Below, in pieces: positions 24,934 to 51,379 of a stretch of DNA of 64,000 nt (positions within the stretch are counted from its first letter, which is position 1; every line of letters starts with the position of its first letter). The DNA comes from Octopus sinensis. Lineage: Eukaryota. The notes beneath the pieces are model-generated. The model ran no database searches and was not told where the DNA came from. It saw only the letters and a program-made list of their open reading frames with translations. Location of the stretch: contig NC_043004.1 of the NCBI RefSeq assembly GCF_006345805.1, positions 49,414,001 through 49,478,000 on the forward strand, read 5' to 3'. The position numbers and the translations under genes are program-made.

Positions 24934-25015
24934 GACACTAACCCAATCTTTGTATTCAGTAAAGTAACCATTGAAGCTAACATACCACCATCTCCCTGTA
25001 TCAACTATGGCACAG
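24934..25015 (+). CDS. RB1CC1: RB1CC1 coding exon 3 (DTNPIFVFSKVTIEANIPPSPCINYGT)
   Basis: Acceptor ttgcAG, donor GTAAA, 82 nt. Resembles human DTNPIFLFNK. Confidence 0.93.
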
Positions 25016-25592: not shown

Positions 25593-26338
25593 TGAAATGG
25601 TATTGCATTATTTGCTACACAGTGTTGCCTTAAGGCAGTTGCCTGGGATCCCGAAAGGTCAAGGGAGCCACTTCTGATCCATCTATGTTATGGCTTACTA
25701 TCAATAAATAAATGTTGTTTTGCCCAGGGACCTATAATGCAACTTAAACAGCTCTGCTGCTGCACAAAAAAAAAACAAAAACAGCAACCAGCTAGCTTGT
25801 TATGTATTGCATGTTATGTTCTATGACTGGATGCCCTTCTTATCACCAACTATTTTATGATATGGACTGAGTACATTTTATGTCACTAGAGAGGTTATAT
25901 ACCAGGACTGAATTGCTCCCTCTATTCTGTATTAATTTTCATTTAGTGCTACAGTCCTCTTACATTTGCATGTGTGTGCATACAATGGCCTTTCAGTTTC
26001 CATCTACCAAATCCACTCACAAGTGTTTTGTTGACCAGGAGCTTTAGTAGAAGGCGCATGGCTCAGTGGTTAGAGCGTCGAACTTACGATCATGAGGTTG
26101 TGAGTTCGAATCCCGGACCGGGCTGCGTGTTGTGTTCTTGAGCTAGACACTTTATTTCACATTGCTCCAGTTCACTAAAGATATTTGTGCGGTGGTGGAG
26201 CGATACAGGACTGTCACGTTAAGTTGCCAGTATACAACCATTCTATCGCTCCTCCACCGCTCATGTCTCTATGAGATATTTAGAAATTTAATATTTCTGA
26301 TTTTGGTGATCAGTGAATAAACTTCACTGAAAATATAT

Positions 26339-26381
<43 letters not shown>

Positions 26382-26421
26382 GAAGTCTAGACAAATATCT
26401 TCAGCTATCAGGCCTTGCTAC

Positions 26422-26467
26422 TCTAGACTGATGATGGTCAAGACCCAGAAACATGCATGTCTCTAGA
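26422..26467 (+). ncRNA. Type I hammerhead ribozyme (minimal, Penelope/retrozyme type)
   Basis: tctaga-CTGATGA-tgg(tcaagac)cca-GAAA-ca(tgca)tg-TC-tctaga. All core nucleotides present, stems I/II/III pair, GUC cleavage triplet ends at 26461. Confidence 0.88.
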
Positions 26468-26629
26468 TGCAGGCCTAGCTGTTGGGGGTGTTTGTTTCCC
26501 CTTCATAAGTATATAAGGACACAGGAAATGTGTCAAGGCCGACAGGAAGCGTCGATGCTTCCTAGGGCTAAACAGCGGTGGTGTAATTCCCTTACGGGAT
26601 TGTCACGTTAAGTTGACAGTATACAACCA

Positions 26630-26668
<39 letters not shown>

Positions 26669-27336: not shown

Positions 27337-27422
27337 ACAAAGTCCTCACAGATGCCATCAGTGAAGTTGTACTTCTACCTGCCACTCATGAGACAGTTTC
27401 AGATGCTTACAAACTGGCTAAG
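27337..27422 (+). CDS. RB1CC1: RB1CC1 coding exon 4 (DKVLTDAISEVVLLPATHETVSDAYKLAK)
   Basis: Acceptor ttccAG, donor GTATC, 86 nt phase 1->0. Resembles human LMMPAVFHTVASRTQLA. Confidence 0.88.
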
Positions 27423-35029: not shown

Positions 35030-35264
35030 GTAAGTAGTTGACTTTCATCTCAGTTGTTTGACTTGGTCAGTAGCTAATAGGCATCAGATTTTGGTGTTGA
35101 TAATTATCCTGTAATCCAGGGTCACCTAACCATCAGATGGTGGGCCGATATTGGGTCATAGATCATTTGATTCCAGGCTGCACAGAAAGAATAAATTTTA
35201 AAATTTTATTTCTATTTTATTGACTTTTGCAGTCTGCATGGTGTTTTTACATTATATAGTTGTG

Positions 35265-35597
35265 AAGGTGCATGGCTCAGTGGTTAGAGCGCCGAGCTTA
35301 CAATCGTGAGGTTGTGAGTTTGAACCTGGACCGGGCTGTGTGTTGTGTTCTTGAGCAAGACACTTCATTTCACGTTGCTCCGGTTCACTCAGCTGTAGAA
35401 AAGAGTTGCGATGTCACAGGTGCCAAGCTATATTGGCTGGTGCCTTTCCTTTGGATAACACTGGTGTCATGGAGAGGGGAGGCCGGTATGCATGGGTGAC
35501 TGCTGGTCTTCCATAAACAGCTTTGCCTGGACTTGTACCTGGGAGGGTATTTTCTAGGTGCAATCCTACAGTCAGTCATGACCAAAGGGGGTCTCAG
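35265..35597 (+). mobile_element. tRNA-derived SINE family C (Meta/CORE-like central region)
   Basis: A box tggctcagtgg, B-box-like gagtttgaacc, gtgttcttgagcaagacact. Other copies at 26051-26176 (5' part), ~60915-61140 and ~31500-31680. Confidence 0.78.
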
Positions 35598-49568: not shown

Positions 49569-49959
49569 ACTCTCATCAGTTAAATGGTAGAGTTGTCATC
49601 TGTTATTTAAACCCTGATTGAATAACTGCAAATAAAACTGCATGAAACCATTGGTATGGGATTACTGAATTCTGTTAAAAGAAATTATTTATTCATCCAT
49701 GTAGTGTTGAGCACTCGTTCTTCCAAAGTTCATCACTATCTGTCTAGCTGTATGTATATGTGTGTGTATATTTTTATAAAAGTATATTTTTGTATGTGTA
49801 CGTGTGTGCGTTTGTATATATATATATGTATATATATTTGGAGAGAAGATTTTTTCTCAAAGAATTAAGACTGAGAAAAGAACCCTTTTAGAAAGTCGAA
49901 AGACACTAACCTTTGGGAACTGATTTCATAAAATGTGTGTGGGCTTTGCTTTTATAGAT

Positions 49960-49995
49960 GTGCAAGCGCTTTCAGTTCTTAACGTTTTCAAGCAC
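49960..49995 (-). ncRNA. Minimal hammerhead-like motif (U3-A8 variant) at the 3' end of the Penelope element
   Basis: Minus strand reads gtgc-TTGAAAA-c-gtt(aag)aac-t-GAAA-gcgc-TT-gcac. 4-bp stem I, palindromic AGCGCT stem III, one mismatch at the base of stem II. Confidence 0.6.
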
Positions 49996-50738
49996 GTGTT
50001 ATTATATATAGTGAAAGTTGTTTTCAGTAAAATTGTTGTTGACTATTTCCAGTTTAGCTTCGGACTCAGAAATCTTATGAAATATTCTTCTTCTGCCTTC
50101 CGGAGAAGGCCGTTCTCTTCATTTATTTTATGAAGAGGGAAAATTGTAAATTTTCCTTGTGCACAGATGTCCAAATGATCACTACGTGGTATGCATCTAA
50201 GAGCGAGATTTTTTATTTGAAGTCTATGCACATTTACACGGTTGGTTAGTTTCATTTTTGTTTCCCCAATATAATGTTCATTGCATCGTGGGCATGTTTG
50301 TAGAATCCCAAGAACCACATTATTCTACAAACAGCCAAACGCCTTCTTCCATTTTTACACCAGTTCCCAAGTCTCCGATGCACAATCAAGGAACAACAAA
50401 TAATCAACAGCCGAAGGCAACCCCCAAATCTTAAGAAACTTCTAACCAAAGCAAGATTTGCATCAGAGAAAGAAATGATGCGAGTTACCAAATGTGGAGA
50501 CCCCCCCCCCCCGTTATGGGACATGTGATTTAATAGAACAGGGACCAACCGAAAAATTCAAGAATGGAAAAGAATTAAAGGTGGATGCAAATATAAACTG
50601 CAAATGCAAAAACCTGATATGTTGTATCACATGCCTACGATGCAACGAACATTATATTGGGGAAACAAAAATGAAACTAACCAACTGTGTAAATGTGCAT
50701 AGACTTCAAATAAAACATCTCGCTCTTAGATGCATACC

Positions 50739-50976
50739 TATACCTATTTCTTTACTACCCACAAGGGGCTAAACACAGAGAGGACAAACAAGGACAGACA
50801 AACGGATCAAGTCGATTATATCGACCCCAGTGCGCAACTGGTACTTAATTTATCGACCCCGAAAGGATGAAAGGCAAAGTCGACCTTGGCGGAATTTGAA
50901 CTCAGAACGTAACGGCAGACGAAATACGGCTATGCATTTCGCCTGGCGTGCTAACGATTCTGCCAAGCTCGCCGCC
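50739..50976 (-). mobile_element. Young Nin/Deu-domain tRNA-SINE (family B) inserted in the Penelope ORF
   Basis: Full-length copy with core gcctttcatcctttcggggtcgataaattaagtaccag. 13-bp TSD ttagatgcatacc at 50726-50738 and 50977-50989. Confidence 0.88.
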
Positions 50977-51379
50977 TTAGATGCATACCATGTAGTGATC
51001 ATTTGGACATCTGTGCACAAGGAAAATTTACAATTTTCCCCTCTTCATAAAATAAATGAAGAGAACGACCTTCTCCGGAAGGCAAAAGAAGAATATTTCA
51101 TAAGATTTCTGAGTCCGAAACTAAACCGGAAATTTAGTAAAATAACAATTTTACTGAAAACAACACTCTAAATATGTGTGTATGTGTGTGTGTATTTATA
51201 TATATATATTCACGCATACATACATACACACATATATACATATATATATATAAATAGGTGTGTGTGTGTAATTATGGGTGTTGAGTCCCCTTCATATGAA
51301 AAAGACAAAATTATAACTTAGAACTTTGATCAATAGAAAATAAAATATTTTTGAGACAGCAGTAAGTGCTGGTGTTTAT

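Follow-up and report, generated by a model that had tools for sequence, protein, structure and literature searches.

A type I hammerhead motif in an octopus RB1CC1 intron lies in a dispersed mini-element probably copied by Penelope machinery

The window analysed here is the whole 64,000-nt stretch of Octopus sinensis DNA (contig NC_043004.1). It carries the gene RB1CC1, whose identity as given in the earlier note was borne out by an 87% match to the Octopus bimaculoides protein. The hammerhead motif lies, as that note had it, in intron 3, between coding exons 3 and 4 and on the same strand as the exons; this intron is 2.3 kb long. The insertion that carries the motif adjoins a 3′-truncated SINE-like repeat, putatively a tRNA-derived SINE.

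24934-25015, plus strand: RB1CC1 coding exon 3 (borders approximate)
26050-26173, plus strand: SINE-like repeat, 3′-truncated, 90% to a longer copy at 35264-35389
26422-26427 and 26462-26467, plus strand: stem I, 6 bp
26428-26434, plus strand: CUGAUGA core
26435-26447, plus strand: stem II, with ugg/cca at 26435-26437 and 26445-26447
26438, plus strand: G26438T, a change private to this copy, with the fourth stem II pair lost (all 29 of the closest copies have G)
26448-26451, plus strand: GAAA
26451-26460, plus strand: short palindromic stem III, with A-U, C-G and A-U pairs around UGCA
26461, plus strand: C of GUC, after which the cut is predicted
27337-27422, plus strand: RB1CC1 coding exon 4 (borders approximate)

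A type I hammerhead was verified at 26422..26467 (+), with every part at the coordinates given for it earlier. The core has C3 U4 G5 A6 N7 G8 A9 and G12 A13 A14, together with the A15.1-U16.1 pair and H17 between three helices, and helix I is open. A generic type I descriptor had this motif as its single match in the 64-kb window. A strict descriptor (stem I of at least 6, stem II of at least 3 and stem III of at least 3 pairs) gave no match on either strand of 60 order-3 Markov copies of the window, and a looser rule gave five; the type I hammerhead in the RB1CC1 intron is not due to chance. The comparison with Rfam hammerhead models proposed in the earlier note gave no support, as none of these models matched at E<=10 in searches of a 5-kb and a 101-nt stretch, and whatever else matched was an AT repeat or a chance similarity, scoring far under the gathering thresholds.

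In a later RB1CC1 intron, a broken Penelope-type element was seen at 49836-51170, composed of an inverted terminal piece and a GIY-YIG end with a short repeat between them. Inside the inverted piece, on the minus strand at 49960-49995, lies a second hammerhead-like motif, which combines a core of the U3-A8 variant with GCGC in stem III, is antisense to RB1CC1 and is without a stable fold.

The 130-nt hairpin described earlier at 26378-26508 was confirmed by folding (-59 kcal/mol, z -6.5, equalled by none of 200 shuffles). Its long extension of stem I exists, but the cagcta region pairs in another register than the one proposed, and the minimum-energy fold of the hairpin leaves the catalytic core unformed. 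As the extent of the feature, the hairpin proved too small, being only the middle of a larger repeat at 26174-26635, the parts of which are given below.

26174-26635: whole insertion, a short inverted piece followed by one unit and a further 43 nt, with (TA)n at the end
26174-26205, minus strand: inverted 5′ piece, the first half of the tail with the outer part missing
26204-26635, plus strand: sense part, one unit (389 nt) and a 43-nt direct repeat
26245-26300, plus strand: 57-nt tail of the unit
26378-26508, plus strand: long imperfect hairpin extending stem I, part of the repeat unit, with compensatory changes among copies
26397-26411, plus strand: stretch in the 5′ arm of the hairpin that is duplicated as target around LINE or ORF1-only inserts in other copies of the family; empty here

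The unit is a non-coding repeat of about 360 nt (359 nt in locus L025) with a GC content of 0.41. A search of the genome (G000) returned 2,635 candidate places, the best 40 of which scored 93-96% identical, and a 27-mer 3′ of the motif had 528 exact matches against none for its reversed control. The unit in the window is longer than that in L025 because of a longer internal TA run. The 43-nt direct repeat (26204-46 equals 26593-635) makes the copy exceed one unit, so that its tail is internal, and its right end is the end without tail, followed by (TA)n. Nine of 131 segments were longer than one unit, the longest having 1.5 units. Several short hairpins (z -3.6) were observed in the 3′ third of the unit (26509-26635 in the window), just before the no-tail end; this third may be what a helper protein recognises. 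Contigs of four runs, which we guess to be of RNA origin, contained many variants of the family, mostly of the 3′ part, in a form in which strand, ends and locus are unreadable.

At least four further families of hammerhead mini-elements of about 345-360 nt, each with its own stem III palindrome, were also seen (L111-L131, L136, L146, L153-L156, L160 and L238-L240). They are 62-77% like the window family in alignable stretches. Three copies of an unrelated hammerhead family occur in L031 (L031:578-2248).

Conservation of the fold was assessed in 51 copies similar to the hairpin, out of 59 listed, eight near-duplicates or end-damaged copies being excluded. Changes on both sides were found in 17 of the 46 hairpin pairs, compared with 6.7 +/- 1.9 in shuffles, none of 500 of which reached as many, in a control that ignores relatedness. 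The covariation expected for stems I to III was present in stem I (4 of 6 pairs) and stem II (3 of 4), but stem III is invariant within the family; its palindrome differs in sequence between related families. Core positions 3 and 8 switch jointly, being C-G in 95, U-A in 15, U-G in 6 and C-A in 1 of 117 motif hits, a set chosen for pairing in which some loci overlap. Both the joint switch and the changing palindrome have been described for Penelope hammerheads (PMC4209133). Position 4 of the core is C in 16 of the 51 copies, and 24 copies have a mismatch at the first pair of stem II; to judge from these sequences, both the C and the mismatches count against full activity of the family.

Insertion anatomy was studied in 79 loci taken around the first 100 of the 528 27-mer matches, so that selection was by a motif situated 140 nt 3′ of the predicted cut; with L031 and L032 excluded for their long inserts, 77 remained. 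An inverted 5′ junction, as in the window copy, was found in 47 of the 77. Among these 47, the 57-nt tail stands at one outer end only in 42, and the flanks are microsatellite in 28; an AT-rich direct repeat of 6-14 nt was found in 18 of the remaining 19. The same pattern of inverted 5′ piece and tail is reported for Penelope-like elements (PMC8557442, PMC11167929), where the tail has been attributed to reverse transcription beginning at two internal sites (PMC11167929). The tail reported for those elements is 30-40 nt, and that of the unit is longer. AT-rich or microsatellite targets and a partial tandem forming a pseudo-LTR, both characteristic of Penelope elements, were found for the unit. 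Moreover, an intact Penelope-type family in the same genome, encoding RVT_1 and GIY-YIG domains, ends in the same two ways and is flanked by (TA)n. No autonomous Penelope family similar to the unit was found among 32 loci from one query (best E 0.087), so the helper is inferred rather than found. The GIY-YIG fragment of the window, used as a query for the helper, led to Penelope families of which none resembled the unit. Taken together, copy number, insertion anatomy and covariation support the link to Penelope elements and retrozymes made in the earlier note.

Two further observations concern Penelope-type sequences. The young family at L192-L208 (e.g. L192:930-3941, minus strand) has copies up to 99% identical and an open frame of 705 aa; its hammerhead-like motif has GCAA instead of GAAA in all 26 copies listed, and may be a dead or non-canonical motif in a recently spread family. 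In L215, an inverted pair of the unit has a decayed Penelope ORF (L215:2245-4054) at a distance of 1.9 kb.

We consider it highly probable that the unit is a non-autonomous mini-element copied by Penelope reverse transcriptase and endonuclease, of which the RB1CC1 copy is a likely inert passenger. Tandem or read-through transcripts of source copies would be bound by the Penelope protein, which would nick AT-rich DNA and begin to reverse-transcribe from two fixed positions separated by 57 nt, whence the tail and no-tail ends. The template would be uncleaved or re-ligated (circular) RNA, since copies cross the cut site and 5′ truncation points do not pile up there (3 of 131 5′ ends at positions 0-2 of the cut). 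The hammerhead of a source copy probably cuts weakly, either as a dimer through its palindromic stem III or with help from the protein. The RB1CC1 copy would act as a monomer with a weakened stem II, and the pre-mRNA most likely stays intact.

The same anatomy could also belong to a true retrozyme, in which source copies self-cleave well to give a circular RNA of about 360 nt; cleavage of the intronic copy, in trans or through dimers, would then be occasional and would serve no function for the host. At 359 nt and 41% GC the unit resembles the mussel retrozymes of 350-390 nt, and with one type I hammerhead it lies within the retrozyme range of 150-450 nt and low GC. Its monomer folds strongly as a circle (z -6.3), two molecules can pair through the 10-nt palindrome (-13.3 kcal/mol, computed), copies longer than the unit occur, and in L240 a related family shows a pair of complete hammerheads at a spacing of 361 nt. 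Against this, no head-to-tail pair of complete hammerheads of the window family, and hence none of the tandem arrays of retrozymes, was seen in the loci retrieved, and the long copies could just as well have arisen from tandem transcripts left uncleaved, which are the main template in the system of PMC11167929. An apparent tandem pair in L225 turned out to be a different motif and not of the window family. The two readings overlap, the sole difference being the level of ribozyme activity, and we regard efficient self-cleavage of the retrozyme kind as possible, if somewhat unlikely.

For the RB1CC1 copy itself, the earlier note had proposed co-transcriptional cutting of the FIP200 pre-mRNA. A co-opted copy of this kind, tuning FIP200 output, would agree with the sense orientation in a 2.3-kb intron, with the core nucleotides, all of which are intact, and with the long stable stem I. 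However, the copy is a young member of a large dispersed family, and has seven private changes in 258 nt (2.7%) relative to the majority of the 29 closest copies, three of which break or weaken hairpin pairs. G26438T abolishes the fourth pair of stem II, so the 3-bp stem II seen earlier is indeed present in the window copy, but as a damaged version of the 4-bp stem of the family; elsewhere in the hairpin, one pair is broken by G26408T and another weakened by C26496T. The core is buried in the minimum-energy fold, and adopting the active fold costs 6.1 kcal/mol in the window copy versus 3.65 in three family-type copies, in a secondary-structure model without tertiary contacts. A partner is lacking as well, no second complete hammerhead being found in the copy's own insertion or, by descriptor, in the 64-kb window. 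In place of the single locus typical of a host-co-opted intronic ribozyme, we found a high-copy repeat with private changes that break pairs.

Published activities point the same way: single minimal Penelope hammerheads did not cleave in vitro (PMC4209133), and the Penelope hammerhead of the anole needed its protein, with no reads ending at the cut site in the data reported (PMC11167929). Hammerheads of mussel retrozymes cleaved slowly (PMC7229834), and weak activity of the window copy may accordingly remain. Given the 2.7% divergence, the lost stem II pair and the lack of a second complete hammerhead nearby, cutting of the pre-mRNA is predicted to be unlikely. The copy in the RB1CC1 intron is thus likely to be an inert passenger and regulation of FIP200 by it is unlikely; we hold the co-opted ribozyme to be a very improbable reading of the locus.

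In L031 and L032, a 1.65-kb insert lies immediately 5′ of the hammerhead core. It encodes one protein of about 440 aa with a CCHC knuckle, and there are 15,219 candidate places for this insert in the genome. Its 3′ end reads AATAAAGA, and duplications, many of them 9-23 nt long, stand on either side of it. The idea that this stretch is part of the unit or an intron was rejected, for it has flanking duplications of 14-19 nt in these two loci and occurs at other sites. The same 3′ end, AATAAAGA, is shared by a two-ORF LINE with APE, RT and zf-RVT domains, and the ORF1-only protein is 26-28% identical to ORF1 of this LINE. The domains are those of Tx1-type LINEs, ORF1 having RNA-binding folds and a CCHC knuckle and ORF2 an APE, an RT and a C-terminal zinc finger; the LINE may accordingly belong to the Tx1 clade, although no named Tx1 element was among 43 hits. 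A comparison of the ORF1-only protein with 7,998 candidates close to it in length gave no relatives at E<=0.001. Its structural model was poor (pLDDT 48) and was matched weakly by Foldseek to proteins with tandem RRMs (best E 3e-4), and Atlas leads were CCHC and ZCCHC3-like clusters at 0.91-0.92. The ORF1-only element can be likened, as a non-autonomous partner, to the HAL1 ('half-L1') elements.

The position of these elements relative to the core is nearly fixed. From 40 LINE loci, three of them without an end, 24 of 37 3′ ends lay 32-37 nt before a hammerhead core by one automatic rule; four others were followed by another LINE, and nine were classed as 'other', three of which were decayed units by eye. 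From 92 ORF1-only ends, 32 were followed by another element and set aside, and 34 of the 60 non-tandem ends lay 19-38 nt before a core. The background was 75 of 20,000 random stretches of the window (0.4%), and both fractions are inflated because the samples were drawn as the best matches to query copies that themselves lie beside hammerheads.

Since 3′ ends of the LINE and ORF1-only elements adjoin the unit in most of the sampled loci, the unit might be thought a SINE-like passenger of this neighbouring L1/Tx1-like LINE. The unit, however, ends without the AATAAAGA end of the LINE and shows the Penelope tail/no-tail pattern instead; the LINE sits inside the unit, between duplicated target sites, and in loci chosen by the unit motif the insert is present in only 5 of 79 (L031, L032, L039, L041 and L103). 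The end structure of the unit largely refutes the passenger reading, to which we give next to no credence.

Repeated independent insertion of the LINE and ORF1-only elements is supported by the sequences, because the paired duplications match within a copy and differ between families. The order in L154 (LINE, duplication, ORF1-only element, the same duplication, hammerhead) supports it, as does the remnant of another family's target kept in L032. The LINE in L255 belongs to a subfamily whose usual target is resembled by the first bases of the U2 gene that it adjoins, which is further support. Composites co-amplified by Penelope machinery do occur (an inverted composite in L121).

Several other arrangements of these elements were observed. 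In L255, a full U2 snRNA gene (L255:710-903; Rfam 183.6 bits) follows directly after the LINE 3′ end. The youngest ORF1-only subfamily (L140-L145, L149, L151, L158 and L173) forms head-to-tail arrays of 2-6 copies with a spacing of 1.7 kb; it has many intact frames of 434-445 aa, and stands mostly beside a different short repeat without a hammerhead core or Rfam match. In L136, L155, L156 and L169, an ORF1-only element lies between two complete hammerheads of the same strand about 2.1 kb apart.

A system of three layers can be imagined, in which Penelope spreads mini-elements of about 350 nt, the LINE and ORF1-only elements dock upstream of the core, and flanking hammerheads release a protein-coding, possibly circular retrozyme that rides on the Penelope RT; we put this forward as a speculation that is unlikely to hold.

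For RB1CC1, the insertion is most likely without importance. The Penelope signature on a repeat of retrozyme size gives genomic support to the published guess that animal retrozymes are driven by Penelope elements, and the octopus unit offers a defined RNA for trials with purified Penelope protein. The near-fixed distance of the LINE to the core in widely differing repeats raises the question of how an APE endonuclease follows a changing target.

The closest known relatives of the motif are the minimal hammerheads in Penelope pseudo-LTRs (PMC4209133). As described there, these are type I with a short palindromic helix III and an extra base before a G-C pair in stem II, have the U3-A8 core variant (here in related families), and occur as many dispersed single copies, with opposite-strand pairs a few hundred bases apart. 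Unlike the elements of PMC4209133, the octopus unit has no RT/GIY-YIG ORF and wraps directly from the tail to the start of the unit; its stem I of 6 bp continues into the 130-nt hairpin, and its stem II has 3-4 bp rather than 7-8.

The 350-390-nt retrozymes of Mytilus galloprovincialis (PMC7229834, PMC7761336) are likewise non-coding, about 360 nt long and under 45% in GC, with one type I hammerhead per highly self-paired unit and copies of more than a unit. They are tandem multimers in these accounts, whereas the octopus unit is mostly truncated, inverted and dispersed. Penelope elements have been named as likely helpers of animal retrozymes (PMC7761336); according to that source, the repeats carry no motif pointing to a helper, in contrast to the octopus unit, whose ends carry the Penelope tail signature. 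MRC1 of Chlamydomonas (PMC8557442) is similarly non-coding, with partial tandems forming pseudo-LTRs. Elements of this type resemble an autonomous family at the 3′ end, and no such partner was found for the octopus unit among the 32 Penelope loci; most Chlamys elements are described in the same source as being without canonical hammerheads.

We found no description of these families in the literature on octopus hammerheads or on a hammerhead repeat as LINE target, although repeat libraries (Repbase, Dfam) may hold them. A 2026 octopus repeat annotation (PMC13282606) reports L1-Tx1 and Penelope families, and the word 'ribozyme' is absent from its main text as far as available. LINEs of the Tx1 clade are reported to target transposons and U2, such as Tx1L in Tx1D, Tx1-Mar in Mariner-N4 and Keno in U2 snRNA genes (PMC4494074). 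Like these, the octopus element is an APE-RT-zf LINE that occupies a constant position within another repeat, is bordered by target-site duplications and occurs in tandem piles. It differs from those in PMC4494074 in its target, a hammerhead hairpin whose 5′ arm takes the insert in several families that are 62-77% alike where alignable. The motif class is already known, and the octopus family with the LINE upon it represents a modest variant of it.
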